The notes under the pieces were generated by a model. The model saw nothing but the letters and a program-made list of their open reading frames with translations, did not search any database and was not told where the DNA came from. Below, one piece after another: positions 18,169-41,668 of a stretch of 64,000 bases of DNA; position 1 is the stretch's first letter; each line of letters opens with the position of its first letter. Location: positions 32,001 to 96,000 of the IMG/VR virus record IMGVR_UViG_3300047160_006900. One strand, written 5' to 3'. The DNA comes from a virus. The translations under genes were made by a program, and so were the position numbers.

Positions 18169-19286
18169 GTGACAAGCTCAGATTCCATATCGTTTCCTTG
18201 CCGCATACCCAGACCACCAAGGAGTACTCCTGGTGTGCCTACACCGAGAAAGTGAGGAAATTCTGCGGGATGATGATGTCCCTCGGCCATGAGGTCTATC
18301 TCTACGCTGGGGAGGAGAACGAGGCCGACTGCACGGAACTCGTCACGGTGATCACGAAGGCCGAGGTGGAGCAGTGGTTCGGCCATCTCGACTGGCAGAA
18401 GGATCTCTTCCCCGCTGACGGCTGGGACCCGGATAAGCCATGGTGGCAAATCGGGAACACCCGATCGATCAAGGAGATCGCTAAGCGGCAGCAGCCGGGG
18501 GATCTGGTGGGCACGATCATGGGTCGGGATCAGGCAATGATTGCCGACGCCTTCCCGGAGATGTTGCCCTGTGAGTGGGGCATCGGGTACGAGGGGACGT
18601 ATGCCAACTATCGGGTCTTTGAGTCCTACACCTGGCTGCATCACGTCCATGGGGTTCAGCGGGACTCCAACGGGCGGTTCTTCGACGCCGTCATCCCCAA
18701 CAGCTTTGAGCTAGAGGACTTCCCCTACGGGGAGGGCGACGGCGGGTACTACCTCTTCCTTGGCCGGGTCATCCTCCGCAAGGGGCCGCATATCGCTGCG
18801 GAGGTCTGCAAGAAGCTGGATGAGAAGCTCCTCGTCGCCGGTCAGGGCGTCTGGCAGGAGGAACCCGGCAAGCTCTACGGGCTCGACAACGTGGTGATGA
18901 CCCATGACAACATGGAATACGTCGGAGTGGTACAGCCCCAGGAACGGGCCAAGCTGCTGGGAGGGGCCAAGGCTGTCTTCATGCCCACCCTGTATCTGGA
19001 GCCCTTCGGCGGCGTGGCTTGCGAGGCCATGCTGTGCGGGACACCCGTGATCGCCACCGACTGGGGGGCGTTCACCGAGACCATCGTGGAGGGCGAGACC
19101 GGATACCGCTGTCGCATGTTCCGGGAGTTCGTGGAAGCGGCGGAGAAGGTCCCCTCTCTGGACCGCAAGGCCATCCGGGAGCACGCCCTGCGCTATACCA
19201 CCGACACCATCAAGCACGAATACGACTACTACTTCCGTCGGCTCGCTACCCTCCGGGATGAGGGCTGGTACCAAATGGAGTACTAA
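18165..19286 (+). CDS. Glycosyltransferase (GT-B fold, GT4 family)
   Basis: YLFLGRVILRKG and EPFGGVACEAMLCGTPVIATDWGAFTE (E-X7-E). Confidence 0.93.
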   Translation: MSDKLRFHIVSLPHTQTTKEYSWCAYTEKVRKFCGMMMSLGHEVYLYAGEENEADCTELVTVITKAEVEQWFGHLDWQKDLFPADGWDPDKPWWQIGNTRSIKEIAKRQQPGDLVGTIMGRDQAMIADAFPEMLPCEWGIGYEGTYANYRVFESYTWLHHVHGVQRDSNGRFFDAVIPNSFELEDFPYGEGDGGYYLFLGRVILRKGPHIAAEVCKKLDEKLLVAGQGVWQEEPGKLYGLDNVVMTHDNMEYVGVVQPQERAKLLGGAKAVFMPTLYLEPFGGVACEAMLCGTPVIATDWGAFTETIVEGETGYRCRMFREFVEAAEKVPSLDRKAIREHALRYTTDTIKHEYDYYFRRLATLRDEGWYQMEY

Positions 19287-21720: not shown

Positions 21721-23373
21721 ATGCCCGTCTCGTCAGACCCCAATCTTCCCCCCGATCAGCTTGCCCCCGAGGATCTCATTCCTGTCGTGGACGTGTCGGC
21801 CACCGGGCCGACGAACCCTGGGGGGACCAACAAGAACGTCACTGTGGGTGGACTTGCCACTGTGGTGGCCAGTGGAGGGCCGGTCACACAGGGACCGACC
21901 GGCCCGTCGGGACCGGTTGGGGCTACCGGGGTTGGGGACACTGGTCCTGCAGGAGATACCGGACCTCGGGGTTACGGAGGACCGATTGGACCGTCCGGGC
22001 TGAAAGGTTCGACCGGAGTCCCGGGGGTTTCCGGTCATATCGGGTCCACCGGCTCTCCGGGAGTGCAAGGAGCTACGGGAGCCCAGGGTATTGCTGGTCG
22101 AGCGGGGGCTCCGGGACTCGTCGGGGCCACCGGAGCAGGACTCCCGGGGATGCCGGGAGCCACGGGTCCTGGTGGTGGAGAAACCGGGCCTCCAGGTCCA
22201 ACCGGACCTCCAGGAGCAACGGGGACGCCCGGGGCTACGGGGGCGGGGCAAGCGGGAGCGTGTGGTCCGAAGGGTGCTACCGGTGATCTAGGGGCTACCG
22301 GGGTTCTTGGCCCTACTGGACCGCCGGGTCTCATTGGTATTACTGGCCCCATGGGGGCCACTGGTCCTGTTGGAGCAACCGGAGGCGGGGCTACCGGGGC
22401 TCCGGGACCTACTGGTTCACAGGGATTCCAGGGTCTTTCTGGAGCGACTGGTCCGCAAGGGTCCATCGGTGTCATCGGACCGACCGGGCCATCGGGGCCG
22501 ACTGGTGGGCTGGGAGTATCGGGAGCGACCGGTATCACGGGAGCGACCGGTATTACCGGGGCTACCGGAGTCGGAGTGACGGGCATCACCGGCATCACTG
22601 GCCCTGCGGGAGCTACGGGTGTTACCGGATTCACGGGACCAGTCGGAGCGACTGGGGTAGTCGGTCCAACCGGCTTGGCCGGGGCGACTGGGGTGACCGG
22701 CGCTACTGGTTCCGGGGCTACGGGGGCAGTAGGACCGACCGGTCCCGGCGGCGGAGCAACCGGTCCGCAGGGTTATACCGGGGTCACGGGGCAGACCGGA
22801 CCCGGCGGTGGAGCTACGGGGCCTCAGGGCGCTACGGGAATCACCGGAGCTACTGGTATCACGGGTTCGGCGGGAGCGACGGGGGTCGGGACTCAGGGGA
22901 TCCAAGGGATCCAAGGAATCCAAGGATTTCAGGGAGCAACGGGAGTCACGGGATCGGTCGGAGGCCAGGGTCCCCAGGGTGTCCAGGGACCCGTTGGATC
23001 CACTGGGCCTTTGGGATCTACCGGTATCACTGGATCTACTGGCCCGACCGGAGTATCAGCAGCCCAGGTACTAAATGCACAAACCGGTACTTCATACACA
23101 CTAGTCGCAGGAGACATCCTCAAGCTCATCACTCTCAGTAACACCGCTGCTATCTCTGTAACAGTGCCACAGGACTCTGCGGTTTCGTGGGCTATCGGAT
23201 ACTGGTGTGAGTTGTACCAGTTGAACACCGGGCAGGTGACCGTAGTGGCGGGGACGGGGGCCACCCTGCGGGCCACCCCCACAGCCAAGGCTCGGGCTCA
23301 GTTCTCCCGGCTGTTTATTCAGAAGATCGCCGCCAATACGTGGGCGTTGAGCGGGGACGTGGCAGCGTCATGA
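21721..23373 (+). CDS. Collagen-like fibre protein 2
   Basis: Gly-X-Thr run; N-terminal DLIPVVD...TNKNVTV; C-terminal [10 protein letters not shown]...GQVT...RAQFS...WALSGD domain. Confidence 0.92.
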
Positions 23374-25630: not shown

Positions 25631-27517
25631 ATGGTTGACACGATTGGAGCAACCGGAGCCACTGGTCCTCGGGGACTCGGTGGTCCGGTCGGACCCCGTG
25701 GCTACACGGGTCCTGCAGGAGCCACGGGCCCGCAAGGGATCAAGGGTTCCACTGGTGTTCCCGGCACGGTCGGCCCTCCGGGAGCCGGAGCAGACGGTCA
25801 GCCAGGACCCACTGGACCGCAAGGGGCCACTGGCCCTGGCGGTGGTGATCCGGGAGCGACTGGTGTAGTTGGCCAAACGGGAGCGACCGGTCCTCGGGGA
25901 GCAACTGGTGCTGGTGGTCCGGGAGCCACTGGTCCGCAGGGAGCTACGGGTCAGCCGGGATCCGACGGTTCTAATGGTGTCGATGGTCTTCCTGGCCCCA
26001 CGGGACCTACTGGTGTTGTGGGAGCGACGGGCTCCAACATCGGTATCACCGGTCCGATAGGTCCGACTGGTCCGCAGGGCATCACCGGCCCGATCGGATA
26101 CACCGGGGTCCAGGGCAATACGGTTGCAGGGCCGACTGGCCCGCAAGGGATCGCCGGTCCGGTGGGCTCCACCGGGACCCAGGGGCCTGCCGGTACCGGC
26201 TCGACCGGTCCGACCGGTGTCCAGGGCATCCAGGGCATGACGGGTGTCACGGGTGGTGTGGGAGCCACTGGTGTCGTAGGACCCACTGGTCCTCAGGGAT
26301 CAGGGGCCACGGGGGCAGTGGGTCCGACCGGTGTGGCCGGTCCTTCCGGAGCCACAGGTCCCCAAGGTGCTACCGGTGACCCCGGTGGTCCGACCGGAGC
26401 AACCGGTGCCGTTGGAGCAACCGGGCCTGGCGGGGGCGCTACCGGTCCTCAGGGAGCTACTGGTCCTGCCAACGTCGGCTTCACCGGGGTCACCGGAGCA
26501 ACGGGTACGGCTGGTATCCAGGGCACGCAGGGAGCTACCGGTTCTGGTGGTCCCGCCGGGGCCACTGGTGCTGGCATCGTGGGTCCCACCGGAGCCACGG
26601 GTGCCGTCGGTGCTCCGGGTATCCAGGGCATCCAGGGTGGGCTTGGGCCAACTGGAGCCACCGGTCCCTTCGGACCCCAGGGCTTCACTGGCCCGCAGGG
26701 CATCCAGGGGACCACGGGTCCCACCGGCCCAGTGGGGTCGGCGGGTGCCCAGGGTATTCAGGGTGCTGCTGGTGCTGTCGGAGCCACGGGGACGACCGGA
26801 GCCACTGGTTCGGGAGCCACGGGGACGGCCGGGGTTGTCGGGGCCACTGGTCCTTCCGGAGCCACCGGGGTCACGGGAGCGGTCGGAGCCACCGGTATCA
26901 CCGGGGCGGAGTCGGTCAACTCTCGGTCGGACTCGTACATCCTGGCCCTGTCGGACGCCAACAACATCGTGGAGATGACCAAGGCCACGGCCTCGGCCGT
27001 TACCGTGCCCAACAACACCGACGTGGCCTTCGCCGTCGGGACCAACTGCGACATCATCCAGATGGGTGCTGGTCAGGTCTCGGTTGTGGCAGCAGCGGGG
27101 GTGACGCTCGACACATCGTCCACCCTCAAGCTCCGTCAGCAGTACTCGGCGGGCACGTTGCTGAAGGTGGCCACCAACGAGTGGGTGTGGCTGGGAGACA
27201 CCGAGCCTCCGGGTCAGACCATCCAGACCAAGACCGCCAACTACACCTTGGCCATCACCGACGCCTGGACGTTCATCGAAATGAGTGCCGCTGGGGCGCT
27301 CACGTTGACCATTCCGGCCAACTCGGTGGTGGCGTTCCCGATCGGTACCCACGTCGATATCGGGCAGTGGGGAGCCGGTCAGGTGACCGTGGCGATCACC
27401 ACTGACACCCTGCGAGCAACCCCGACAGCGAAGCTGCGGGCTCAGTACTCCACCGCCACGCTCATCAAGGTGGCGGCGACGGAGTGGGCTGTCATGGGGG
27501 ACATGGCTGCGTCATGA
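25631..27517 (+). CDS. Collagen-like fibre protein 3 with duplicated C-terminal domain
   Basis: Gly-X-Thr run followed by two tandem copies of the YxL...GAGQV...LRxQYS...EW..GD domain also present in fibre 2. Confidence 0.92.
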
Positions 27518-28284
27518 GCATGTTCACGTCGGGCGTCCCAGGAATCATGGCGAGCGAGGAGATGCAGGGGACTGGGCTCGTCACGGTCGCCAGTAAGACG
27601 AACTGGGGTAGCAACGCTGATGCCTCGTCGTACGTCTCGTCGTCAGTCACCACGACCGCAGGGGCTCTCTGCATTCTGGTGGGGATGTGGACCGTCGCAT
27701 CCCCATCAGTTGCCAACGCAACGATTTCGGGGGCAACGTGCTTGAGCAACCTCAATGGCGTGTCGAACGCTGCGTTCAACTCCGTCGGAGCCCCGCTCTA
27801 TGAGATCGAGGTGTGGATCGCCAAGGGGACCGGGACGGCAAGCACGATCACGGCGTCATTTGGTGGGACGCAGACTTCCGGGTTCTTCGTCCTGTTCCAA
27901 TGTTCCAACGTCAACGTGGCCGGAGGTCCGATCTGGGGTGGTACCGGAGGAACGAACTACGGCGTGCAGCAGGTCCAGACCATCAACGACGGGCTTGTGT
28001 ATGACATGACCCGAGCAACGGGAACCGGTATCGGCTGCCCCTTGAACCCGTTCACCAGTATCAACAACGGGACCTTCTCTGTGGTGGGCGTGGACTACCC
28101 CCCGACCTGGGATCCCAACATCGTGAAGCCGGGATGGACCTGTCCATGGTCTCCGGCCTGGGTCAACCCGTCAGCCGGGGCTGCGGCTGCGTGGACGGCA
28201 TACAACGATCAGACCCCGAAGTTCTATGCCAACGCCACGTCCCAGAAATTTGCTGGCGTGTCCATGGAGTTGGTCTCCATCTGA
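27514..28284 (+). CDS. Fibre-tip associated beta-rich protein
   Basis: ATGA-coupled to fibre 3; begins [14 protein letters not shown]; Ser/Thr-rich. Confidence 0.7.
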
Positions 28285-28297
28285 TGAGGGTTGCCTG

Positions 28298-31200
28298 ATG
28301 CGAGGAAATCGGGTCTCTAGCTACAAGCAGTGGCGACGTCCTCATCCGTCCCTGGAAGTTCCTGGTCCTCCGGCTTCCAATCAGCCCAACATGATCATCA
28401 CCGGGGTGACGTCCAACCCTACAGCCCCGGTGGCTGGCGATCATGTGGTCTTCACGGCCACGGTGCAGAACATTGGCGGAGCGTCGACTCCCGCTGGGAC
28501 TGTCGTGGACGTGCTGTTTGACCCAAACGGTGTCGTAGCGGCTGGTCAGCCCACTACCGCTGTCACTTGGGAGGACACATATACGACCGCTATTCCTCCT
28601 GGAGGAACCGTTGTCCTGACTGCCACGGGTGGATCGGTTGGATACTCGGCGGGTCCCCCGGTTGTTCCGGGACAGAACTATTGGGTGGCGGTGTCGGGAA
28701 CATACCCAATCCACTGCACGGTCAACAGCAACAACCGGTTCCCGGAATCGAATCTGGCTGACAATACCTTCGATCTGAGTCTCGTCGTGGCCCCGTCGAG
28801 CGTGGCAACGCCTCCGGCGGCTCCGACCCTGACTGCGACTCCGGGGAACGCCACTGTTGGGTTGTCCTGGACGGTGCCGAACAACAACGGCTCTGCGATC
28901 ACTAGCTACAACATCTACAAGAACACCGTGCTGTTGACCTCCGTGGCATCGACGGTCACGACCTACACCGACAATGCCGTTACCAATGGGACGTCGTACT
29001 CCTATGTGGTATCGGCCGTGAATGCGATCGGGGAGGGGTCCAAGTCCATCGCTGTTTCAACGACTCCGAACGTGACCTCGCCGCCCTCGGCTCCGACGCT
29101 GAACGGGACGAGCGGCAATGCCGTGAACCACCTGACTTGGACGGCCCCATCGGCTGGGGCTCCGTTCACGGGGGTCTGGGTATATCGGGGCGGGGCTTCG
29201 TACAACCACATCACTACGACCCCGTTGCCCACGACACAGGATGACGTCGGGGTCACGAACGGCACGACCTACAGCTACACCGTGGCTTACGAGAACGCCG
29301 TCGGTATCGGGACTCAGTCCAACACCATTACTTTGACGCCGGTCAGTGTTCCTGCCGCTCCGGTGCTCACCGCTACATCCGGATCAGCGCAGGTGGGCTT
29401 GTCGTGGACGACTCCGGCGGCGAACGGGTCCACGATCACCGGCTACAAGGTGTACCGCAACGGGACGTTGCTCGCTTCCCCGACAGCCTCGCCGTACACG
29501 GATACCACCGGAACCGTGGGGACGTCGTATTCCTACACCGTCAGTGCGGTGAACTCGATCGGGGAAGGCCCACAGTCGACCGCACAGTCGGCGGCTTCGA
29601 CGGCCATCACGGTCCCTGCCGCTCCGGTGCTCATGGTGCAGTCGGTGGGCAGCAACTCTGTGTCGTTGTCCTGGACGATCCCGGCGAACAACGGATCGGC
29701 CCTGGTCAACTACAAGGTCTACCGCAACAGCGCTCTGATCTACACGCAGACCCAGTTCCTCGATTCACCGGCTTATGGGGACGGTGGGGCGGTCAACGGC
29801 ACCACATACACGTATCAGGTCTCAGCTACCAATGGGATCGGGGAAGGTCCCAGGTCCAACACGGTGACCGCCACGCCGTCGGCAGTCGGTATCCCCTCGA
29901 TCCCGGCTGACGTCGTGGCCGGGGTACCGGGGAGTGATGTCGTCTCGTTCGGTGGGATCGGACATAGCTTCCAGTCGCAAGCGAACTATCAGACCTGGAA
30001 GTCTTGGCACTTCAACGGGCACACCATGGTCCCCAATGGGTCGGGGAACGCTCAGACCTCGTCGCAGCGATTCAAGGGTGCTTCCTCCCAGAACGACACC
30101 ACTCCGGGGATCTACGACTCTCAACGACTCACGGAAGGGTGGGGCGTTGCAGCCCTGAATGGGGGTTCACAGAACTCCCCCAACAACAACCTCGGGGCGA
30201 TCAACGCTTTTCGGAATGGGACCATCAAGTACGTCGGGTTCTTCATTGGCGTCGGCCCGGGTACCAATGATCTTCCGAACATCTATGACACCACCCAACG
30301 GGCGAAGGCTGCTCAGCGGGTCGCTGATATCGCTGCCTTCATGAAGTACATCCATCCGACTCGGACCTTCATTCAAAACGACTGGGAAGTTTCGGATTGG
30401 AGTAAGACCTCGTCAAATAACAACTCTCATACCCTGGCGGATTTCCAGACGACGTATGAGCAGTGGGGCTATGAGATCGGGACGGCGATCTACAGCACAG
30501 CGGGGCATACCGGGGCTATCTGGGGGCTCTACAACTTTGAGGTCTACGGCATGTGGATCTCACTCGTTCGGGCCAATAACGCTTCGCAGGCAGCAGGGCA
30601 TGGCCCGTTGGCGGCTCCATACACGCCGGATACTACGAGCACTCCTGCTCCGGTCCCGAACTACACCGTGGTCGGGGGCGCTGCCATGGATGGCAAGACC
30701 CTGTGTATGGCGGGGCTGATGCGTGCCCATGCTCAGTTTCAGGCTACGGGACCGATTCTCAAGACCGACGACATGTTTTATCGGCCTCCGCAGTATGGCG
30801 GGGCGTCCTATGACACGGCGCTGAAGTGGAATACCCAGGGCTGGATGGATTTCTGGTCCCACTACTTGCCGCAGTCGACGTGGGATCAGGTAGCCCCCTA
30901 TCTCGGTATCGTCCCCTTCACCTGGAGCGGGACTGACCGGAGCACGTTCTCGACCGATACCCAGTTCCCGGAGCCGACGCAGACCAACCTGTGGGCATCG
31001 TGCCGGAAGTACAGCATGTTCGGGTTGCGGATGGATTACACCTACGGGGGCTATTTCGGAACCCCGGGCCTGGTCGGAAATCCTCCGTACACACAGACTG
31101 ACAGTTACTCGGGCGGCGAGGGTCTCTGGGGGGTGTATTCGGTCAAGATCGGGACCACCACCGTCTACGCCAACGATCATACGCAGCCGCAGGCGAATGA

Positions 31201-31867
31201 GGCCCAGGTCAACTCCGCTGTCCAGATCACCGTGCCGCATGTTCCGGCTGGGACCGGCATTGTCGATGTCGTGGTCACCACCTCCAAGGGTGGGACGAAC
31301 GGCTGGGGTGGAGTCAGTGCCCGGGGTGGGGCAGCGAAGTTCAACTACGGGGACGGTGGTCCTGATACTTCGACCACCGGAGCGGCGACTGGACCGTCTC
31401 CACCCACGATTACGAGTATCAGCCCGTCGACCGGAGCGGCGAACTCCCAGATCGTCATCACCGGTACGAACTTCATGGGGAACGACTATCAGACCCCGTC
31501 TGGTCGTATCGCTGCCATGCAGCCGACGATCGACCCCACGCCGCAGGACACTACTGCGATCACGGTGGGGACGATCACCCAGGCTCGTAGTGGGACCACG
31601 GTCACGCTGACCTTCAACATGCAGCATCCGTTTGGGATGCATCACGCCACCTGGCTGCTCTACTCCACGGATGGAGTACTGGTGACCGCCCAGGGTGAGG
31701 CCAGGCTGACGTACAACCTGGGGGGTGGGAGTCCGACCGGGGGGATTCCGAACTCCTCCATGGACTGTGTAGCCACGATCCCCAACGCCACGGCGGGACT
31801 CTACGTCATCCTCACCTGCGTCTCCGCCATCGGCCAGCGGACGTCACGAAGGATTCAGTTGGCATGA
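28298..31867 (+). CDS. FN3-repeat protein A: CARDB-like + 4 FN3 + glycoside-hydrolase-like module with inserted IPT/TIG
   Basis: FTATVQNIG...FPESNLADN (CARDB); four LSW...Y.VYR...Y.Y.VSA.N..GEG repeats; FIQNDWE motif. Confidence 0.85.
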   Translation: MRGNRVSSYKQWRRPHPSLEVPGPPASNQPNMIITGVTSNPTAPVAGDHVVFTATVQNIGGASTPAGTVVDVLFDPNGVVAAGQPTTAVTWEDTYTTAIPPGGTVVLTATGGSVGYSAGPPVVPGQNYWVAVSGTYPIHCTVNSNNRFPESNLADNTFDLSLVVAPSSVATPPAAPTLTATPGNATVGLSWTVPNNNGSAITSYNIYKNTVLLTSVASTVTTYTDNAVTNGTSYSYVVSAVNAIGEGSKSIAVSTTPNVTSPPSAPTLNGTSGNAVNHLTWTAPSAGAPFTGVWVYRGGASYNHITTTPLPTTQDDVGVTNGTTYSYTVAYENAVGIGTQSNTITLTPVSVPAAPVLTATSGSAQVGLSWTTPAANGSTITGYKVYRNGTLLASPTASPYTDTTGTVGTSYSYTVSAVNSIGEGPQSTAQSAASTAITVPAAPVLMVQSVGSNSVSLSWTIPANNGSALVNYKVYRNSALIYTQTQFLDSPAYGDGGAVNGTTYTYQVSATNGIGEGPRSNTVTATPSAVGIPSIPADVVAGVPGSDVVSFGGIGHSFQSQANYQTWKSWHFNGHTMVPNGSGNAQTSSQRFKGASSQNDTTPGIYDSQRLTEGWGVAALNGGSQNSPNNNLGAINAFRNGTIKYVGFFIGVGPGTNDLPNIYDTTQRAKAAQRVADIAAFMKYIHPTRTFIQNDWEVSDWSKTSSNNNSHTLADFQTTYEQWGYEIGTAIYSTAGHTGAIWGLYNFEVYGMWISLVRANNASQAAGHGPLAAPYTPDTTSTPAPVPNYTVVGGAAMDGKTLCMAGLMRAHAQFQATGPILKTDDMFYRPPQYGGASYDTALKWNTQGWMDFWSHYLPQSTWDQVAPYLGIVPFTWSGTDRSTFSTDTQFPEPTQTNLWASCRKYSMFGLRMDYTYGGYFGTPGLVGNPPYTQTDSYSGGEGLWGVYSVKIGTTTVYANDHTQPQANEAQVNSAVQITVPHVPAGTGIVDVVVTTSKGGTNGWGGVSARGGAAKFNYGDGGPDTSTTGAATGPSPPTITSISPSTGAANSQIVITGTNFMGNDYQTPSGRIAAMQPTIDPTPQDTTAITVGTITQARSGTTVTLTFNMQHPFGMHHATWLLYSTDGVLVTAQGEARLTYNLGGGSPTGGIPNSSMDCVATIPNATAGLYVILTCVSAIGQRTSRRIQLA

Positions 31868-34677
31868 GGAATATCCGGACTGGCAGCTACAAGAGCTTCC
31901 GTCGACCGTGGCCCCGAACCGAGATCCCTGGCCCTCCGGTGGGCGTGGCTGTGGCTAACCCCCCGATTCTGCAGGCCGCTGCCGGAAATGCTTCCGTGGT
32001 CTTGACGTGGACTGTGCCCTTCGGAGCGGGGAGCACCGTTACTGGCTACAAGGTGTACAAGAACGGTTCCCTGCTCAGCCAGGTGACCGGTTTGACCCTC
32101 ACCGACAACTCCGTGACCAACGGGACGACGTATTTCTATGCCGTCTCGGCGCTGAACGCCATTGGGGAGAGCCTGACCTCACCCCCAGTGAGTGCGACTC
32201 CCTCCGGCACGCAGCCGACGGCTCCTCCGGCCCCGGTGATCACGGGGACGGCAGGGGACAAAACCGCCGCTGCTCACTGGGGCACTTTGGTAACCGGGGG
32301 ATCCCCCATCACCCACTTGCAGCCGCTCCTGAATGGGTCGGCAGTGGACGATTTCTCTGACCCGAACAACATCAACGGTGGGATCGCCACTTACACCAAT
32401 CTGACCAACGGTACCTTGTACGCCCTCAGCATCAAGGTGATCAATGCTGTCGGCTCTGCTACTTCCAACGTGGTGAATGTGACCCCGGTGGGGGCAGCGA
32501 CGGCTCCGTCGGCCCCGGTCCTGCAACTCACGGCGGGGAACACGCAGAACACCTTGACGTGGAATACCCCGGCCAATGGTGGGTCTGCCATCACGGGGTA
32601 CAAGCTGTATCGGAACACGGTTGCCTTGCTCACCCTGGGCGTGGTGACGACCTACACCGATACCGGGCTGACCAATGGGACGCTGTACACCTACACGATC
32701 ACCGCCCTCAATGCGGTAGGGGAGAGCGTTCAGTCGGCGGCGGTGGCCGGGACTCCGACTGGTACCCAGACTGTCCCCGGGGCTCCGGTGTTGTCCGGGA
32801 CGGTCGGAGACACCTTCGTCAACCTGACCTGGACGGTCCCGGCGACGGGGGGTGCAGCCCTCACTGGCTACAAGATCTATCGGGGTGGGGTGTTGGTCAC
32901 CAGCACGGTCCCGGGAACGACCTACACGGATTCAGGCCTGACCAACGGCACGGCCTATACGTACACCGTGTCGGCGGTCAACAGCGTCGGAGAAGGGCCA
33001 CTGTCGAATGCCCTGGTGCGGACCCCGGTGGCTGCCACCGGTTCACCCACTCTCCCCGCCAACCAACTGGTGGGTCAGCCCTCGTATCGGGCGATCTCCT
33101 GGGGCGGGGCGAACTTCGTGGACGTCAGTCAATCCGAGATGGATACCTGGAAGGGTTGGGGGTTCTATGCGACATCCACCGCTGGGATCGCTGGTTATAT
33201 CGGTCAAGCGCTGAGTGGGTCTGGACAGCTTCCTATTGATACGCCGAATCATGCGGGGTCTCAGTATCAGTGGCAGCGAGCCTTTGAGGGGTACACGGTC
33301 AGTGGGGTTAACACCTCAGGTCCGGATTCCAACGTCATCCTGGGTCTGGGTCCCTTCTATCGAACGAAGATCCATAACGACCCGACCTATGAGTCGTATC
33401 TCTCGGTCCATCCGGATACCTATCCGACCGGCGTATCCCCAGTCCTGCATGACTGGTGGGACGACACTTGGTGGGCCAACACAGCGGCATGGTTTGGAAT
33501 GGTGGCTCGGGATCTCAAGAATGTCCTGGGGGGATCCGGTATCGGCTTCGATACTGAGAGCGGAGCCTGGGGCACGCTGGTAGCAGGCCATACCTGGGAT
33601 CAGCAGAACCAGCAGGTCTTTAACCGTGGCTATCAGTGCGCCACGGCGTTCTGGCAGAACTTCCCGGATGGGAAGGTCTTCACCTACGACTACCGCCACT
33701 CCGGTGGCTGGCAGGAATACCTCTCTGGGTTCTACAACTCGGGTGATACCCGAACCATGCGTGCTAGCGGAGCCCAGACGTACTGGCATCTCGGTTGGGT
33801 CAAGGCGATGTGTGACTTTGGGAGTGTCAACTCCCGGCACATGACCATGGACGCCGTGTTCTACGTCTGGGGGGAATACGGATATCAGGCTGCGAACGGG
33901 ACCGACTGTCGAATCGCCCGCTTGAAGATCAACTGCGAGAGCGGCATGTCGCTGATGTCCCAGGAATATCCCTACGGGGTCGGGCAGGCGTCCTGGAGCA
34001 AGGGTGGGGACCGGATCCGGTTCATCCCGGCGTCCTGGCCTGATGGCGCTTCCGACAAGACCACCATGACTTCTCCGGCGACCTGGGCAGTGCAGACCGC
34101 TGCTGACCGGGAAGGAAGCATGGGGGAGTGGCGGTGTGTCTACCACGGAACTGAATCTGGTTCCGCTGGATGGCCGGGAGGGACTCCGGGTGGAACGTTC
34201 TACTCCGTCTACGGGAATACCAGTAGTGCGGTCTGGGGTATGGGGACGACGCATCTTGCGGCGAACCAGGCTGCAGCGAACCCGGCTGCGCTCACTGGTG
34301 ATACCCAGGTAGCGACCTGTATCAACCTCTCCTGGACCGGATCGACGTTGACCTGTCGTGCCGCCCACAAGTACGGCATCTGGTATGTCGAGGTCTTCAA
34401 CGGGGCCGCCTTCAACCCGGCCAACCCTGAGGCCTCCCGGCTGGGGCTCATGCAAATGTCCTGGGGGCGTCCGTCGTGGCCGGAGTATGTCGGGGCTGCT
34501 GGGAGTGCCGGGGGGTCTCCGTCGAACGCCAACATGTACACGACGGGAGCCATGGTTGCGGACAGCTACGTGGACTGCACCTTCCCCACCTCGGGAGCGG
34601 TCGGGGACTGGCGGGTGCTCAAGGTCATGACGGCCAAGATGGACACGTCCTGGTTCAAGGTGCAGCGGACGTCATGA
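31864..34677 (+). CDS. FN3-repeat protein B: 4 FN3 + glycoside-hydrolase-like module
   Basis: Four FN3 repeats; GGSGIGFDTE (DxE); Trp/Tyr-rich C-terminal half. Confidence 0.85.
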   Translation: MRNIRTGSYKSFRRPWPRTEIPGPPVGVAVANPPILQAAAGNASVVLTWTVPFGAGSTVTGYKVYKNGSLLSQVTGLTLTDNSVTNGTTYFYAVSALNAIGESLTSPPVSATPSGTQPTAPPAPVITGTAGDKTAAAHWGTLVTGGSPITHLQPLLNGSAVDDFSDPNNINGGIATYTNLTNGTLYALSIKVINAVGSATSNVVNVTPVGAATAPSAPVLQLTAGNTQNTLTWNTPANGGSAITGYKLYRNTVALLTLGVVTTYTDTGLTNGTLYTYTITALNAVGESVQSAAVAGTPTGTQTVPGAPVLSGTVGDTFVNLTWTVPATGGAALTGYKIYRGGVLVTSTVPGTTYTDSGLTNGTAYTYTVSAVNSVGEGPLSNALVRTPVAATGSPTLPANQLVGQPSYRAISWGGANFVDVSQSEMDTWKGWGFYATSTAGIAGYIGQALSGSGQLPIDTPNHAGSQYQWQRAFEGYTVSGVNTSGPDSNVILGLGPFYRTKIHNDPTYESYLSVHPDTYPTGVSPVLHDWWDDTWWANTAAWFGMVARDLKNVLGGSGIGFDTESGAWGTLVAGHTWDQQNQQVFNRGYQCATAFWQNFPDGKVFTYDYRHSGGWQEYLSGFYNSGDTRTMRASGAQTYWHLGWVKAMCDFGSVNSRHMTMDAVFYVWGEYGYQAANGTDCRIARLKINCESGMSLMSQEYPYGVGQASWSKGGDRIRFIPASWPDGASDKTTMTSPATWAVQTAADREGSMGEWRCVYHGTESGSAGWPGGTPGGTFYSVYGNTSSAVWGMGTTHLAANQAAANPAALTGDTQVATCINLSWTGSTLTCRAAHKYGIWYVEVFNGAAFNPANPEASRLGLMQMSWGRPSWPEYVGAAGSAGGSPSNANMYTTGAMVADSYVDCTFPTSGAVGDWRVLKVMTAKMDTSWFKVQRTS

Positions 34678-36557
34678 AAGGCCTCCGGACCGCTGCGAGC
34701 TATCGGTCGTGGAAGGTTCCACGGCCGTCCCTGGAGGTCCCTGGGCCTCCGGTGGGTGGGGCGGTGGTTCCAGCGGCTCCGTCGTTGGTGGGTACGGCCG
34801 GAGTCGGGCAGGCGAATCTGTCGTGGACCGTTCCCGCTAATGGGGGCAGCACAATCACCAGCTACAACATCTATCGCAATGGGGTGTTCTTGGCCTCGGT
34901 CGCCAACAACCCCATTCCGATGATTCCCGCTGATGTGGTAGCAGCGACTCCAACCTGGCAGTTCATCAGCCAGGGCAGCTACGAGAACTACAACGCCAGC
35001 GCTGCCAACTATCAGACCTGGAAGGGTTGGGGTATCGGCGGTCATGTGTTCCGGCTGGGCGCTGCCGGTGACAACATGACGCAGATCGGGCAGGGCACCA
35101 CCACCGCCAACGTGTTGGATGACCCCCACAAGTGGCAGCACGCCATGGAGGGTTACGCCTACAACGGGATCAACACGACCAACCCGACGTCGAACGTGCA
35201 GCAAAACATGGGGATCAAGATCGCCCATGACACCGATCCGTCGATCGAGTTGTGGATGTGGATCCAGCTCATGTTGCCGGGTGATCCGTGGGACGACGCC
35301 GCCTGGTCGGCATGGGCGACGTTCATGGCTGGTCGGGCGGCGTGTCTGAAGTTCTTCGGCGGGACTGGGTTCTTCACTGATACTGAGCGGCCCGGGAAGG
35401 GCAACGGGACCACCCAGTTCTCGCAGGGTGTGTGTTGGGACGTCAACGCCCAGCCGACCAGTCCCGGTCACATCGTCAATCCGGCCGACACGGGCCACAC
35501 GTTCTCCCAGATGTGTACGCAGATGGAAGCTCGGGGCTATCAGGTCGGCCAGCAGATCTACGCCGCTTTTCCTGATATCTCGATCGGCTACTACGACACG
35601 ATCCCCACCGGGTCGTGGGTGAACATGAACGTCTACCCGCAGACCGACGGGACGACCACCACCCCGCAGGTGCTCCCCGACCCGGGGACCGGCTATCGGG
35701 GTGGGTACGACGGCTGCACGCAGAACGCCTACAACCCGAAGATGCAGTTGCTGCTGGGGATGCTCCGGGCAGGTATGGAGGCGAACACCAAGGGCACCTT
35801 TACGTTCGTGGATCATCGTCTCGGCTACTACCTGGGTGCTGCGGCTACTGGTAATAGCTCCGTCGACTACCAGACAGCATGGAAGTGGAGCAATCACTAC
35901 ATACTCGCCCATTTCAGCCAGGAGTTGTCCCAACCGATGCGGGACTTCTGGATGTCCAAGTTGCACAACACGTTCAACACCTGGGGGAACGCCGAATCGG
36001 TGAGCACCTTCTCCCAGCAAAACGAGGTGAGCGAGGCGGGGTACAACACGCAACTGACCTATGCCCGGAAATGGGCGACGAGTACCCGTATGTTCAACTT
36101 CCAGAACTGGCCTCGTCCTGACGGCATCACTCCGGCCGGGACCGGGTTGTGGTCGGGGCAATGCCCCTACACTTACCCGACGACCCGTATCCCAGCGATG
36201 CAGACGCTGGCGTCGCAGACGCAGAATGTCGATTCGACGCCGATCACGGTGGGGACGATCGGCCAGGCTCGGAGTGGGACCACGGTGACGCTCACCTTCT
36301 CCTGCTCGCATGTCATTGGGATCCATCACGTCCACTGGACGTTGTACGCCTCGGATGGGAACACCATCGCTGGACAAGGCGAAGCGGTGATGACCGTCAA
36401 CCTGAATGGGGCTACGACCACTACACCGATAGCCAGCTTTAACCCGTCGATGGATTGCACGGTGACGGTACCGAACGCCATCGCCGGTCTCTACGTCATC
36501 CTGGACGTGTACTCCATCAAGGACCAACGCACGTCTCGACTAGTGCAGGTGACGTGA
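34674..36557 (+). CDS. Protein C: N-terminal half-FN3 + A-type hydrolase-like module
   Basis: Shared N-terminal motif; the FN3 stops after YRNGVFLASVA; GFFTDTE motif; C-terminal domain paralogous to protein A. Confidence 0.85.
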   Translation: MKGLRTAASYRSWKVPRPSLEVPGPPVGGAVVPAAPSLVGTAGVGQANLSWTVPANGGSTITSYNIYRNGVFLASVANNPIPMIPADVVAATPTWQFISQGSYENYNASAANYQTWKGWGIGGHVFRLGAAGDNMTQIGQGTTTANVLDDPHKWQHAMEGYAYNGINTTNPTSNVQQNMGIKIAHDTDPSIELWMWIQLMLPGDPWDDAAWSAWATFMAGRAACLKFFGGTGFFTDTERPGKGNGTTQFSQGVCWDVNAQPTSPGHIVNPADTGHTFSQMCTQMEARGYQVGQQIYAAFPDISIGYYDTIPTGSWVNMNVYPQTDGTTTTPQVLPDPGTGYRGGYDGCTQNAYNPKMQLLLGMLRAGMEANTKGTFTFVDHRLGYYLGAAATGNSSVDYQTAWKWSNHYILAHFSQELSQPMRDFWMSKLHNTFNTWGNAESVSTFSQQNEVSEAGYNTQLTYARKWATSTRMFNFQNWPRPDGITPAGTGLWSGQCPYTYPTTRIPAMQTLASQTQNVDSTPITVGTIGQARSGTTVTLTFSCSHVIGIHHVHWTLYASDGNTIAGQGEAVMTVNLNGATTTTPIASFNPSMDCTVTVPNAIAGLYVILDVYSIKDQRTSRLVQVT

Positions 36558-39133
36558 TGCCGGTCCCGACGACCTACACCGATACCGCTGTGACCGGCGG
36601 AATCTCGTACTCCTACGCTGTGTCGGCGGTGAATGCGGTCGGGGAGGGTTCTCGATCGAACACGGTCTCAGTGATCCCTACCACGGTGGCGACCGCTCCC
36701 CCCGCCCCCACCATCACGGTGACGGCGGGAAATGCTTCGGCCACTATCCACTGGACGTGGCCGTTGGCCGACGGTGGGTCTCCGATCACCCACCTGCAGC
36801 CCTTTATGAACGGGGTGCAGATCGATGATTTGTCGGCACCGTCCTCGTTGTCCGCAGGGGTCTACACGTTCAACAACCTGACCAACGGGACGTCCTACAG
36901 CTTCTTCATCCGGGTCGTGAACGCCATCGGGACCAGCCCGAACTCCAACACTGTGTCGGCCACCCCGGTGGCGGCTGCTACGGCCCCGTCGGCTCCGGTG
37001 TTGTCAGGGACGGCCGGGAATGCCCAGGCGGTGTTGAACTGGACTACTCCCGCCAATGGGGGATCGGCCATCACCGGATACAAGGTGTATCGGGGTGGGG
37101 GTCTCATCACCACGTTGGGCGTGGTGAACACCTACACCAACACTGGCCTGACCAACGGGACGGGATACAACTACACGGTCACGGCGATCAATGCGGTGGG
37201 AGAGAGCACTCAATCCAACACGGTGACGCTCACGCCATCGGCTCCAGTTATCACCGTGCCCTCGGCTCCGGTGTTGTCGGGGACGGCGTCCAGCACCCAG
37301 GTCAGTCTGTCCTGGACGACGCCTTCCTCCAATGGTGGAGCAGCGATCACCGGGTACAACCTCTATCGGGGTGGGGCTCAACTGGTGATCCTGGGCGTGG
37401 TGACGTCCTACAACGACACCGGCCTGATCAATGGGACGGCCTACTCCTATTCCGTGACGGCGGTTAACAGCCAGGGGCAGAGTGCTCAATCGAACACGGT
37501 GACGTTGACCCCCTCCGTGGTGTCCTCACCGACGCTGCCTGCCAATCAGATCGTCGGCCAGCCGTCGTGGAAATCAACTTCCTGGGGCGGCTACGGGTAC
37601 ATCTACGCCTATACCGCTCTGATCGATAGCTGGGTACCGTGGGGGTTCGTCGGTCAAGCCGTCTTCAGCCCCGCCACCCACTTGGGCCTCGGAATGACGG
37701 GAAGCTCCCAGCTAGCGACCGATGTGCCGAACACTCCGGGTTCCCAATACGCCGACCAACGAAGTCAGGAGGGGCTGGCCAATGGGACGGTCGGGATCGC
37801 TGGTCGGGGTTCCTTCTACAACCAGAAGACCCATGACCCGACCAATGAGACGTACCTGAAGTTCTATACCAATAACCAACAGAACACGGGGACGTATCCA
37901 CCGTTCCACGATTGGTTCGATGACGCTTTCTGGACGAACACCGGGTATCCCTGGTTCGCCATGATCGGTCGGGATGTCAAGAACCTTGGGGGTTCTGGGA
38001 TCGGATTCGATACCGAACCTGCGGACTGGTCCAAGCTGGCTCCCGGGAAGACCGCAGCCCAACAAGAGCAGCAAGTGTTCAACGTCGCCTATGAATGCGC
38101 CCGTCAGTTCTACACGAACTTCCCGAACGGCGGGGAACTCTCCTACATGTGGAACTCCCCGCAGGGTGGGTTCGGGCACTGGCTTCGTGGCTGGTACTAC
38201 AACGGCGATACCCGGATCGGCACGACTCAGATTGGTGCAAACGCCACTTGGTACTTCGCCTGGTTGAAGGGGATGTGTGATTTCGGGGGGCCGGGCGCAA
38301 AGGTCATCCACATGCAGGCCGATTTCTATTCCCTCGGGGAGGGTTCGGCGGGCATGAATGGGGAGTCGAATCAGTACAACACCCGGTTGGCGAAGCTGAA
38401 GATGCAGGCCGAGGGGATTTATGCGTGCTTGTCACAGCCCTATCCCCTGGGGCTTGGGGCAACGTCGTGGAATAACGGCTGCGACAAGATCTATTTCGTC
38501 CCATCCGCATGGGCGGCGGGATACACCACGAACCCGAGGATGAACCCGTCGCAGTGGATGACCATGATGACCTGTGACCGTGTCGGCAGTATTGGGCCGT
38601 ACAAGAACACCTACATGGGTGGCGATGCGGGTGGTCTTTCCTCCACACCGGATTCGAAGTGGTACGCCATCGCTGGTGATTCCACTTCGGCGGTCCAGGG
38701 CTTCGGTACCACCCACAATGCCGCCTGTGTAGCGGGGGCGGATCAGACGCCGATCCCGACCGTAGCTCCTACCTGTACGAACCTGTCCTGGACCGGTTCC
38801 ACGATCTCCTGTCGGGCAGCGCATCAGTACGGGGTCATCTACGTCAAGGTCTACAACGGGGCTGGGTTCGACCCAGCGAATCCTGACCCCAACTATCTCG
38901 GGGCCATGCAGATGGTCTGGAATCACCCCAGCCTGCCTGACTACGTCGGGATCGCCGGGAACGCCCCTGGAGGTAGTAATCCCGGCGCTAGTGCTATCAC
39001 GCTGGCCAAGATGGCTGATACTTATCAGCAATGCACGTACCCGACTACGGGGAACTTGGGAGATTGGCGGGTCCTGAAAGTGGTCTCCGCCAAGATGGAT
39101 GTGGGCTGGTTCAAGGTCCAACGCACGTCATGA
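36557..39133 (+). CDS. Protein D: C-terminal half-FN3 + 3 FN3 + B-type hydrolase-like module
   Basis: Begins MPVPTTYTDTAVTGGISYSYAVSAVN; GGSGIGFDTE; ends WFKVQRTS like protein B. Confidence 0.85.
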   Translation: MPVPTTYTDTAVTGGISYSYAVSAVNAVGEGSRSNTVSVIPTTVATAPPAPTITVTAGNASATIHWTWPLADGGSPITHLQPFMNGVQIDDLSAPSSLSAGVYTFNNLTNGTSYSFFIRVVNAIGTSPNSNTVSATPVAAATAPSAPVLSGTAGNAQAVLNWTTPANGGSAITGYKVYRGGGLITTLGVVNTYTNTGLTNGTGYNYTVTAINAVGESTQSNTVTLTPSAPVITVPSAPVLSGTASSTQVSLSWTTPSSNGGAAITGYNLYRGGAQLVILGVVTSYNDTGLINGTAYSYSVTAVNSQGQSAQSNTVTLTPSVVSSPTLPANQIVGQPSWKSTSWGGYGYIYAYTALIDSWVPWGFVGQAVFSPATHLGLGMTGSSQLATDVPNTPGSQYADQRSQEGLANGTVGIAGRGSFYNQKTHDPTNETYLKFYTNNQQNTGTYPPFHDWFDDAFWTNTGYPWFAMIGRDVKNLGGSGIGFDTEPADWSKLAPGKTAAQQEQQVFNVAYECARQFYTNFPNGGELSYMWNSPQGGFGHWLRGWYYNGDTRIGTTQIGANATWYFAWLKGMCDFGGPGAKVIHMQADFYSLGEGSAGMNGESNQYNTRLAKLKMQAEGIYACLSQPYPLGLGATSWNNGCDKIYFVPSAWAAGYTTNPRMNPSQWMTMMTCDRVGSIGPYKNTYMGGDAGGLSSTPDSKWYAIAGDSTSAVQGFGTTHNAACVAGADQTPIPTVAPTCTNLSWTGSTISCRAAHQYGVIYVKVYNGAGFDPANPDPNYLGAMQMVWNHPSLPDYVGIAGNAPGGSNPGASAITLAKMADTYQQCTYPTTGNLGDWRVLKVVSAKMDVGWFKVQRTS

Positions 39134-39216
39134 ACACGTTGCAACGCCGCCTGGCTCGTAGATCTACCTCATGGAGTACTCATCGCCTAACCCGAGCACT
39201 CATCTAGGAGCCTGCT

Positions 39217-41067
39217 ATGTCAACTGATCTCCGGAAGCCCGGTGTCTACGTCGAGGAGTCGCTGCTCCTCGGGACGCCCGACGTCTCTGCGGCCACATCG
39301 GTGGCGCTGTTCGTGGGAGCGGCCGGGAAAGGACCGATCTCCTACCCGGTGCTGCTTAACTCCTGGTCGGACTACGTCCTGAGTTTCGGGGCGTTCGACA
39401 CCATGGTGGGACCGGCGGGGGACACCAACGTTTACACCACGTACCTGCCCTACGCCGTGTACTCGTACTTCCAGAACGGTGGACAACCGGCCTACGTGTA
39501 CCGGGCCGTGGGCTCGACTTCCGGAGGCGCTGCTGAACTCACCGTGACCGACGGGCAGAGTGAGTTCGCCACGGTCCAGTCGGTGCAGTTCACGGCGGGG
39601 ACCGGCCAGGACACCGGGACTGGTCGGGTCACGATCACCACCGTGGGGCCGCACGGCTATGACGCCGAGGACATGGTGTCCACCGTGGTGGACACCAACA
39701 CCTTCGTGAACGCCACTGCCGGTGTCTCGGTCATCTCCGACACCAAGTACGCCTACTACATCACGTCGGACCACATCGATATGACCGACACTCCGGACAC
39801 GGGTGTCGCCTCCACCACGGGTGAAGAGGTCTTCACGGTCTCGGCCAACAGCGTTGGCTCGGGAGGGAACTCCCTCGGGATCACCATCCAGATCGTGGAT
39901 CCCATCAACGGGGTGTTCAACCTCAGCATCTACAGCAACACTACTGAGGTCGAGCGGTTCCAGTACCTGACCATGACCGGGGACACCCCCGGGACCCGCA
40001 AGCTGGATGCGGCGATCAACGACCCCTACTCCGGCTCCACGTTGGTGAGGGTGTCGAACCCCGACAGCACCCTGGTCCCGGCCAGTATCTCCAACATCAT
40101 GAATCTCTACGGTGGGGTGGACCCCGGCCTGCCCGACCCGGCCACCGACTTCATCACCACTGCCCAGGCAGCGGCGGGGGTCATCGATGGGCCGATCATC
40201 GTCAACCTCGTCGGCTACACCACCAACACCAACGACCCGGATGCGTTCCAGATCCCGGCGGCGGTGTCCTCGGCCACCTTCGGGGACCGGGGAGACATCT
40301 TCGTGGTTAATGACGGGGCCAAGCAGCGTCCGTACAACCTGTCCCCGGCGGCGTACAAGACCAGCCTCAGCGCCACGCTGGGCCAGAACGCCGGGGACTC
40401 GTACACGGCCTCGTTCACCCCGTGGATCATCATCCCCGACCCCAAGAGCGCAGGGGCCACGATCACCGTCCCTCCGGGTGGTGCCGTGGCTGGGGTCATC
40501 AGTCGGGTTGATAGCACTATCGGGGTGTTCCGTGCCCCAGCGGGCATCGTGGCCCAGGTCACCAACGCTGTCGGGGTGGACACCAAGTTCTCCGACAACG
40601 ACCTGGGGGATCTCAACGTCTCCAATATCAATGTCATCCGGCCCGTGCAGGGGCAGGGCATCGCCGTCATGGGGGCCCGGACTCGCAAGCTGTACGGAGC
40701 GGACCGCTACATCTCCGGTCGCCGCACGCTCATCTACATCAAGGAGAGTCTGCGACGGTCCACGCAGTACGCATTGTTTGAGAACAACGACCAGCGGTTG
40801 TGGTCGCAGTTGATCATGACCGCCGAGCGACTGCTCCGGCCGCTGTGGGAGGCCGGTGGTCTGCGGGGCAACAACGCTACCCAGGCGTACTACATCCAGT
40901 GCGACGACGTGATCAACACCCCCGCCATGATCCAGTCAGGCGAGGTTCGGATGGAGGTCGGGGTGTCGCTGGAGTACCCCGCCGAGTTCATCGTTATCCG
41001 GGTCACGCAGTTTGAGAGTGGTGGAACCACCGCCGAAGTCATCCAGCCCGTTGGACCAACCGGTTAA
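39217..41067 (+). CDS. Contractile tail sheath protein
   Basis: KPGVYVEE N-terminus; VPPGGAVAG, GVFRAPAG, GART, FENNDQRLW and YPAEFIVIRV. Confidence 0.96.
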   Translation: MSTDLRKPGVYVEESLLLGTPDVSAATSVALFVGAAGKGPISYPVLLNSWSDYVLSFGAFDTMVGPAGDTNVYTTYLPYAVYSYFQNGGQPAYVYRAVGSTSGGAAELTVTDGQSEFATVQSVQFTAGTGQDTGTGRVTITTVGPHGYDAEDMVSTVVDTNTFVNATAGVSVISDTKYAYYITSDHIDMTDTPDTGVASTTGEEVFTVSANSVGSGGNSLGITIQIVDPINGVFNLSIYSNTTEVERFQYLTMTGDTPGTRKLDAAINDPYSGSTLVRVSNPDSTLVPASISNIMNLYGGVDPGLPDPATDFITTAQAAAGVIDGPIIVNLVGYTTNTNDPDAFQIPAAVSSATFGDRGDIFVVNDGAKQRPYNLSPAAYKTSLSATLGQNAGDSYTASFTPWIIIPDPKSAGATITVPPGGAVAGVISRVDSTIGVFRAPAGIVAQVTNAVGVDTKFSDNDLGDLNVSNINVIRPVQGQGIAVMGARTRKLYGADRYISGRRTLIYIKESLRRSTQYALFENNDQRLWSQLIMTAERLLRPLWEAGGLRGNNATQAYYIQCDDVINTPAMIQSGEVRMEVGVSLEYPAEFIVIRVTQFESGGTTAEVIQPVGPTG

Positions 41068-41077
41068 GGAGTAATCA

Positions 41078-41668
41078 ATGGCAACTACCAGCCTGTCGGA
41101 ACGTACCCGGTTGGTTGCTGACCCGCTGCGGAACTTCAAGTTCCAGTTGGAGATCTTCCACAGCGATGGTCAGCTTCAGTCGGACATCGGGAAGATGGGG
41201 TTCACTTCCGTCGAAGGTCTCAACATGTCGACGGAGATGATCCCCTACCGTGAGGGTGGTTGGAACACCAACCCGCACAAGATGCCGGGGATGACCGACT
41301 TCTCTCCGGTCACCCTCAGCAGCGGGGTGTTCTACCAGAAGCCCGGGATGTGGAATCTGGCGAAGCAGATGTTCGCCGTCCAGTGGGGCAACGGCACCAT
41401 CGGTGCCCTACAGGACTATCGCTTCGACATGCTCATCCGGGTCTTCGACCACCCGGTCACCACCGGTCCCGGCGCTGCCGTCCGAGGGGATGTCACGGGA
41501 GCGGTGCTGGCGTATCAGGTCTACAACGCCTGGGTCGCCAACATCGCCTTCTCGGGCCTCAACTCCATGGACAACGCCATCCTGGTCGAGCAGATGACCG
41601 TCCACCACGAAGGGTTGGACGTGTTCTGGGGGACTCAGGAGACTGCCACACTGCGTCACTCGGTCTAG
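41078..41668 (+). CDS. Tail tube protein (T4 gp19-like)
   Basis: DPLRNFKF, GFTSVEGL, YREGG, KMPG and VEQMTVHHEG motifs. Confidence 0.95.
   Translation: MATTSLSERTRLVADPLRNFKFQLEIFHSDGQLQSDIGKMGFTSVEGLNMSTEMIPYREGGWNTNPHKMPGMTDFSPVTLSSGVFYQKPGMWNLAKQMFAVQWGNGTIGALQDYRFDMLIRVFDHPVTTGPGAAVRGDVTGAVLAYQVYNAWVANIAFSGLNSMDNAILVEQMTVHHEGLDVFWGTQETATLRHSV

Follow-up and report, generated by a model that had tools for sequence, protein, structure and literature searches.

Receptor-binding arms that branch give phages a broader host range, and phage engineering makes use of them. The present work concerns an arm of this kind that may be encoded in a 64,000-nucleotide stretch of DNA (hereafter the window, to which coordinates refer), comprising bases 32001-96000 of the 117,405-bp virus record IMGVR_UViG_3300047160_006900. 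The record has direct terminal repeats, is rated 100% complete and represents an uncultured soil phage. Upstream of its tail sheath gene lies an array of four tandem genes, A to D, which encode heads carried on stalks of fibronectin type III (FN3) domains. One FN3 domain of this array is divided between genes C and D, with a whole enzyme-like head module placed between the halves, and the two halves may, on a tentative reading, refold in trans into a branch point.

The closest described arrangement is that of KP32, K11 and KP34, which are podophages of Klebsiella. In the account of PMC13352976, to which PMC6872550 adds a further source on the same system, these phages have branched receptor-binding proteins (RBPs), with an anchored RBP1 that possesses a branching domain and an RBP2 that carries a conserved N-terminal docking peptide. 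The locus described here resembles this arrangement in its adjacent genes and, as proposed from the genes only, in the pairing of an anchored protein with an anchor-less enzyme protein that would dock by its N-terminus behind the anchor. The joints differ: in the Klebsiella systems a complete, folded branching domain binds a short peptide, whereas the joint proposed here is an FN3 assembled from four plus three strands of two chains. Where a KP32-type branching domain would be expected, C has only a half FN3 between motif and head, with no match as far as Pfam coverage reaches. Moreover, the heads here look like glycosidase TIM barrels rather than beta-helix tailspikes.

A second parallel is the central fibre of phage T5, which, as described in PMC10038345, is a string of five FNIII domains, two from the baseplate hub protein (BHP) pb3 and three from pb4. 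The array is like T5 in that an FN3 string continues from one tail protein into the next. It is unlike T5 in that, according to the same paper, pb3 and pb4 meet via loops and the N-terminus of complete FNIII domains, with no domain shared between the chains. The pb3-pb4 joint was considered as a split domain and rejected on account of these whole-domain loop contacts (PMC10038345). A third parallel comes from within the same protein family: in the metagenomic protein P0108, the first FN3 behind the N-terminus is likewise interrupted, at the corner between strands C' and E, by a whole extra domain. P0108 is nevertheless a single chain, with an insert of about 207 aa of another kind and no stop or restart.

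In chaperone-usher pili, donor-strand complementation gives one strand and needs a chaperone and an usher. The proposed joint is similar to that of the pili in that an incomplete immunoglobulin-like sandwich would be completed by strands from another chain, and dissimilar in that three strands (E, F and G) would be donated and that a 547-aa head comes after the acceptor half. Engineered FN3 fragments (Dutta et al. 2005) reportedly complement each other with high affinity. Word searches of open-access papers, which are not proof of absence, returned no description of a natural split FN3 in a phage fibre. If the proposal is true, branching by rebuilding one small domain from two chains is a new and very compact joining principle, and a gene-splitting insertion need not kill the gene. 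A trans-completed FN3 would then be a new variation on branched RBP architecture, in which phage receptor-binding proteins branch at a domain split between two chains, and branched arms could arise through modular gene shuffling.

Anatomy of the Divided Domain

Two half-domain hidden Markov models (half-HMMs) were derived from the repeats of the window itself (alignments A2 and A3) and run over all six frames of the complete 117-kb genome; folds were modelled with AlphaFold2 (AF2), and model confidence is given as the predicted local distance difference test (pLDDT). The features of the array are the following:

28298..31867, plus strand: gene A, 1189 aa; N-terminal motif, CARDB-like domain, four FN3 hits and A-type head
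31864..34677, plus strand: gene B, 937 aa; N-terminal motif, four FN3 and B-type head; intact paralog of the C N-terminus plus D
34674..36557, plus strand: gene C, 627 aa plus stop; its start ATG overlaps the B stop as ATGA
34674..34751, plus strand: shared N-terminal motif of C (residues 1-26, ...SYRSWKVPRPSLEVPGPP), presumed virion-docking peptide
34764..34910, plus strand: first half of the split FN3 (strands A, B, C and C'), by half-HMM (E 1.6e-22 over 34764-34904) and alignment; ends ...FLASVANN
34911..36554, plus strand: nested cassette with linker PIPMIPADVVA, (beta/alpha)8-barrel-like head (residues ~92-516) and C-terminal beta-sandwich (residues ~520-627), by AF2, Foldseek, VIA and alignment
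36555..36559, plus strand: TGATG, the one-base overlap of C stop and D start, with AGGTGA 4 nt upstream of the ATG
36557..39133, plus strand: gene D, 858 aa plus stop; no N-terminal motif
36557..36709, plus strand: second half of the split FN3 (strands E, F and G), by half-HMM (E 3.7e-19) and alignment; MPVPTTYTD...SVIP
36692..37540, plus strand: three intact FN3 of D, by Pfam and half-HMM hits; pLDDT 80-90 in the D model
37529..39130, plus strand: B/D-type head of D (residues 325-858), 63% identical to P0002

The scan returned 11 first-half and 11 second-half matches, all of them within genes A to D. Ten of the first halves are directly followed by their second half; the first half in C and the second half in D are the only unpaired ones, lying 1.65 kb apart on the same strand. 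After its motif, C reads PAAPSLVGTAG...YRNGVFLASVANN and then enters PIPMIPADVVA and the head module; in the longer quoted form, PAAPSLVGTAG...LSWTVPANGGSTITSYNIYRNGVFLASVANN, the half FN3 passes straight into this linker and the 547-aa head. D begins at the ATG at 36557, inside TGATG, with MPVPTTYTDTAVTGGISYSYAVSAVNAVGEG. Aligned with the ten intact repeats, C stops after strand C' and D opens two or three residues ahead of strand E, so that the halves abut with no gap, overlap, loss or duplication. Jointly, the fragments span strands A-G of one Fibronectin type III domain (PF00041).

The two fragments also correspond to one complete neighbour. Residues 1-76 of C are 47% identical to residues 1-74 of B, and residues 6-858 of D are 50% identical to residues 78-937 of B (438/872), including the odd second repeat GGSPITHLQP. 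The closest intact domain to both halves is the first FN3 of A (61% for the C half, 59% for the D half). Mean identity to the intact repeats is 0.51 for the C half (eight repeats, own range 0.41-0.55) and 0.48 for the D half (own range 0.44-0.52), and all 8+8 invariant FN3 columns are retained in the halves, these invariants having been defined with C and D included. Searched alone against Pfam, C matched no family at E≤0.01 or E≤0.1, and whole-domain PF00041 was not matched; the fn3 matches of D (2.2e-28), A (4.2e-23) and B (2.7e-28) come through their intact repeats. The split-domain observation is thus confirmed and lies far beyond chance. The preliminary description of this locus had read C as the shared motif followed by a first FN3 half and an A-type module, D as a motif-less protein coupled by TGATG that starts with the missing half, the two together as a full paralog of B, and both halves as keeping their consensus residues; on each of these points the half-HMM matches, identities and conserved columns agree with it.

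Proteins A, B and C begin with the motif ...SY[KR]x[FW][KR]xPxPxxE[VI]PGPP. Its core, E[VI]PGPP, occurs at three places in the six frames of the whole genome, only at the starts of A, B and C, and D is the sole array member that lacks it. This shared motif presumably docks its protein on the virion.

Gene Starts and Expression Signals

The TGATG overlap, together with AGGTGA, a Shine-Dalgarno-like word ahead of the D start, fits coupled translation of C and D. We infer that D is expressed from the ATG at 36557, where an intact 858-codon frame begins. All invariant head columns of alignment A1 are kept in D, which was itself a row when they were defined.

Database gene calls differ at two starts: one places the start of C at Met83 (P0008, 545 aa), and another places that of B at about residue 64, inside the first FN3 (P0004, 874 aa). 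The truncated calls concern positions 34674-34919 for C and 31864-32052 for B, and because of them automatic annotation hides the N-terminal motifs and the C half FN3. Met1 is preferred over Met83 as the probable start of C because its ATGA overlap with the B stop mirrors the A/B junction, because motif, half FN3 and head share one reading frame, and because a reading of the sequence finds no Shine-Dalgarno-like word ahead of Met83. Neither promoter-like sites nor plus-strand terminator-like sites were found in 27000-41500, and for this reason genes A to D look like one late operon.

Origin of the Split

The ancestor would have been a B-like fibre gene with an N-terminal docking motif, four FN3 and a B/D-type head. 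Into the first FN3 of this gene, at the C'-E corner, a head cassette of foreign or paralogous origin would have been placed. It would have begun exactly at the conserved head linker and carried, after that linker, a TIM-barrel-like head, a beta-sandwich and its own stop codon. The upstream part would thereby have become gene C, with the docking motif, strands A-C' and a new head, while the downstream part would have become gene D, with strands E-G, three FN3 and the old head, restarting at the ATG that overlaps the C stop. Such a single cassette insertion into a B-like gene is the likely source of the C/D split. Models that begin with an A-B-A'-B' duplication would require two deletions that complement each other exactly.

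The paralogs are of old standing. At the DNA level, identity to the first FN3 of A is 56% and 71% for the halves, with many synonymous differences, which rules out recent gene conversion. Synonymous sites between the paralogous repeats look saturated at this 56-71% nucleotide identity. The insertion cannot be dated, because no donor is closer than about 40-55%.

Fold and Enzyme Likeness of the Heads

The AF2 model of C, built from 21 aligned homologues, has a mean pLDDT of 71.3 and a predicted template modelling (pTM) score of 0.78. It shows alternating strands and helices over residues ~92-516, followed by a beta-sandwich at residues 530-625. Foldseek matched the head to TIM-barrel glycosidases, namely beta-amylase and mannanases, with probability 1.0 and TM 0.3-0.45. 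In VIA, the best-scoring structures were 5oq3 (Cwp19 of C. difficile; Z 15.9, root-mean-square deviation (rmsd) 4.4 Å over 287 residues) and the GH5 structure 5d9n (Z 15.2, rmsd 3.8 Å over 276 residues). GH5 glucanases and mannanases as a group scored Z 15.2-14, and GH164 and the PgaB C-terminal domain about Z 14 (PgaB 4p7q, 14.1). A TIM-barrel fold of the (beta/alpha)8 type, like that of clan GH-A, is therefore supported at the fold level for the modelled C head, whose specific activity is only putative. The description of the module between the halves as enzyme-like is consistent with this predicted fold.

At the sequence level, no described glycoside hydrolase (GH) family could be assigned: no Pfam family covers any of the heads, the C head gave 0 matches at E≤1 against Protein Data Bank (PDB) sequences, and the A1 profile searched against the same sequences gave FN3 matches only. 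As for a catalytic acid pair, the residues that correspond to D236, E238 and E159 of C do not vary among nine aligned heads, which include both types. E238 closes the predicted strand 232-238 of C and is a candidate catalytic residue. The D model (mean pLDDT 54.6, head below 50) is too poor for a fold test, and an Atlas look-up of the D head gave leads below 0.9 only, with TIM-barrel-like rows at TM 0.37-0.54.

The assignment of the C head to the A type held in part. C shares the IPxIPADVVA linker with A, and its last 128 aa are 55% identical to A, but the rest is only 24% identical to A and 29% identical to B over the barrel. Judged by these identities, the heads of A, B, C and D are distant members of one superfamily; the head linker, PxxPA[DN]..., is conserved in all of them. 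Compared with C, the head of A has an extra IPT/TIG-like segment of ~110 aa (...PPTITSISPSTGAANSQIVITGTNF...) at 31100-31480 (A residues ~935-1060), just ahead of the shared C-terminal sandwich, and the same insert is present in P0057.

Relatives of the Heads

A full HMMER scan with C returned 519 proteins at E≤0.001, mostly FN3 proteins. The 23 external proteins with a match in the head were scored with the half-HMMs, FN3-only matches being left out. Fifteen of them have no FN3. In the remaining eight (P0002, P0005, P0006, P0007, P0018, P0022, P0089 and P0108) every first half is paired. P0089 is an intact counterpart of C, with the N-terminal motif, one whole FN3 and an A/C-type head, and it is also 627 aa long. 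P0007 has the motif, a whole FN3, an IPT/TIG domain and a B/D-type head. The longest contigs recorded for P0007 and P0002 have the same length, 15,628 bp, and both proteins are probably encoded on one contig.

P0108 (1178 aa, from a metagenome) is a relative of the B/D type and shares 31% identity with B over ~700 aa (E 2e-68). Its first FN3 is interrupted within one chain: the halves lie at residues 37-77 and 296-343, with the unrelated ~207 aa between them. The break lies in or just after strand C', a few residues from the C/D split point. In a Pfam scan of P0108 the nested domain was unmatched and only the next, intact FN3 was seen, and the insert bears no likeness to the open reading frame (ORF) at 27484-28284. 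A second protein, P0060, has three first-half/second-half pairs 210-227 aa apart (residues 1941-3076). From these sequences, the C'-E corner of FN3 in such proteins evidently tolerates whole-domain inserts; this tolerance, suggested by P0108, is a useful hint for protein design. A crude half-domain census of 157 proteins counted 117 first halves and 65 second halves as unpaired. By eye, nearly all of these are divergent FN3s or truncated gene calls and were discarded as candidates, and true interruptions are likely only in P0108 and P0060.

Wider searches yielded little. Scans with the D/B head alignment A1 found FN3-level loci only in viral (L006) and metagenome (L007) contigs and none in genome contigs. 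A single-protein scan of contigs with D found nothing, and the C-terminal alignment A6 found nothing in viral or genome contigs. A protein search with the whole-length alignment A7 gave 4240 matches, dominated by FN3 proteins and none of them informative.

Possible Reassembly in Trans and the Case for a Relic

C and D would be made from one transcript by coupled translation. Strands E-G of D would fill the open four-strand sandwich of C, forming one FN3 from two chains, and the rebuilt domain would tether the motif-less D to C, so that one docking peptide would carry two glycosidase-like heads in a branched arm. That the halves refold in trans and tether D in this manner, as the preliminary description had supposed, is our favoured reading, held as a tentative one. 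The fuller claim, that a one-step insertion made a natural two-chain FN3 and that one baseplate site displays two glycosidase-like heads, is possible and is advanced with a little more reserve.

Refolding was examined in a model of the complex. C residues 28-92 with D residues 1-50 gave an ipSAE of 0.52 in 3/3 runs, whereas the best of three controls gave 0.00; the partner pLDDT was 75, the tool's verdict was 'weak support', and contacts were not part of its output. The cis-nested FN3 predicted in P0108 shows that the topology of an FN3 with an insert is feasible.

The strongest rival, already named as an alternative in the preliminary description, is a non-functional recombination relic, which is nearly as likely as assembly in trans. 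On this reading the C half FN3 would be a floppy spacer and D would be unanchored, either as a free glycosidase released at lysis or as a decaying gene. Several observations weigh against refolding in trans and favour the relic. The support from the complex model is weak: by the calibration of the tool, passes at ≤0.60 are more often wrong than right unless the complex is likely beforehand, such scores having been obtained in only 7/80 solved complexes and in both mismatched pairs that passed, and the score may reflect memory of the much-solved FN3 fold. When C is modelled alone, residues 1-60 fall below pLDDT 50. Related proteins had been suggested as a place to look for the same split, and neither the C nor the D arrangement was found among the 23 head relatives (0/23). 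Since no relative among them shares the split, conservation of or selection on the halves cannot be shown; the split is lineage-specific, and the well-kept halves may simply be young.

The relatives also suggest that C and D could function apart. In P0082, P0028, P0014 and P0079 a disordered linker of 20-60 aa, rich in Gly, Ala and Pro, separates the motif from the head. Because these four have a linker at the place where P0089 has a whole FN3, the spacer seems interchangeable and C could work without a folded FN3. P0002 (960 aa), the closest homologue of D, opens at the first strand of a CARDB-like domain and by its gene call also lacks the motif; it is either a mis-called start or a second anchor-less D-type protein, and D-type heads may for this reason be used unanchored. 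Finally, the D head appears mildly accelerated relative to P0002, with unique changes of 60:47, 60:41, 57:36, 56:38 and 42:34 against five outgroups (chi-squared 0.84-4.74).

Against the relic, the full FN3 core pattern survives in both halves, which have diverged no more than the intact repeats. The D start lies exactly at the junction behind its Shine-Dalgarno-like AGGTGA, and D retains an unbroken 858-codon frame and the invariant residues of its head. A half sandwich left exposed at the N-terminus of D would be a folding liability, yet the D start has not shifted downstream to shed it. The arrangement is also unchanged in contigs of several soil runs, which may be one campaign or the source sample. 

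Unlikely Rivals: Frameshifting, Excision and Assembly Error

ALTERNATIVES tested were frameshift fusion, an intron or RNA element, and repeat-mediated excision. A programmed -1 frameshift near the C stop would yield a single C-D chain, an FN3 with the head nested in cis. The D frame is indeed -1 relative to C and open from 36443, and the cis-nested form exists in the family in P0108. However, an X XXY YYZ heptamer is absent from 36443-36556, the sole one in the C frame lies at 35681, where the D frame is closed, and Rfam gave no match at E≤1 over 34500-36800. Such a frameshift is highly improbable.

The preliminary description had also entertained an excisable cassette of ~1.65 kb, that is, an intron or repeat-flanked mobile segment removed in part of the population. 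The insert has clean bounds, and joining its flanks in frame would give back a B-like gene. The longest exact word common to the two junction neighbourhoods is nevertheless only 6 nt, the same Rfam search returned no intron or other RNA family, and the head within the insert is a homologue of the A, B and D heads. Excision is likewise highly improbable. No contig carries an in-register 34910/36560 deletion junction, although cover is 2-4x with holes, so that this absence proves nothing. One X3 contig joins 34871 to 36919, linking 27 nt of the C half FN3 to 28 nt of the third FN3 of D. Its joint is out of frame with D, and the contig continues for 221 nt into unlike sequence; it is probably the FN3 gene of another organism, a related soil phage.

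Fragments of the stretch occur in 21 soil-metagenome runs, at 0.25-0.54 of sampled words; these runs may represent one campaign and may include the source sample. The contigs aligned to the window are identical to it, and the Logan contigs among them bridge every junction in question with 0 differences: the 5' junction (X2, 34753-35024; X4, 34800-35055), the C/D junction (X2, 36388-36892) and the B/C junction (X1, 34266-34711; X2, 34487-34722; X4, 34441-34769). In addition, P0012, a 249-aa fragment from another assembly, is 100% identical to C residues 1-249 and has the same start Met. An assembly chimera is a natural suspicion, since FN3 repeats are a known source of misjoins and paralogous A and B fragments aligned in part to C and D, but with independent contigs of other runs and P0012 carrying the junctions, and with only 56-71% DNA identity between the FN3 paralogs, its probability is negligible.

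Genome Setting and Neighbouring Genes

GC content is ~0.61 across the whole window. No close cultured phage was found: a megablast search with 34000-39200 matched none of 50,697 phage records, and tblastn of D matched seven phage records, all at the level of FN3 only. The genes around the array are the following:

21721-23373 and 25631-27517: two collagen-like tail-fibre genes upstream of the array, matching PHROG tail-fibre and collagen-like minor-tail families (E 1e-59 to 1e-70)
39217-41067: tail sheath, downstream of the array
41078-41668: tail tube, downstream of the array

Between the array and the sheath gene, the D stop is again overlapped by an ATG (ATGA), which opens a basic ORF of 25 codons (MNTLQRRLARRSTSW...) at 39130-39207. 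This ORF might be the stump of the leader of a lost fifth array gene, or a chance occurrence. Within the structural region there is also a GT4-like glycosyltransferase gene at 18165-19286 (phrog_3408, E 5.6e-81).

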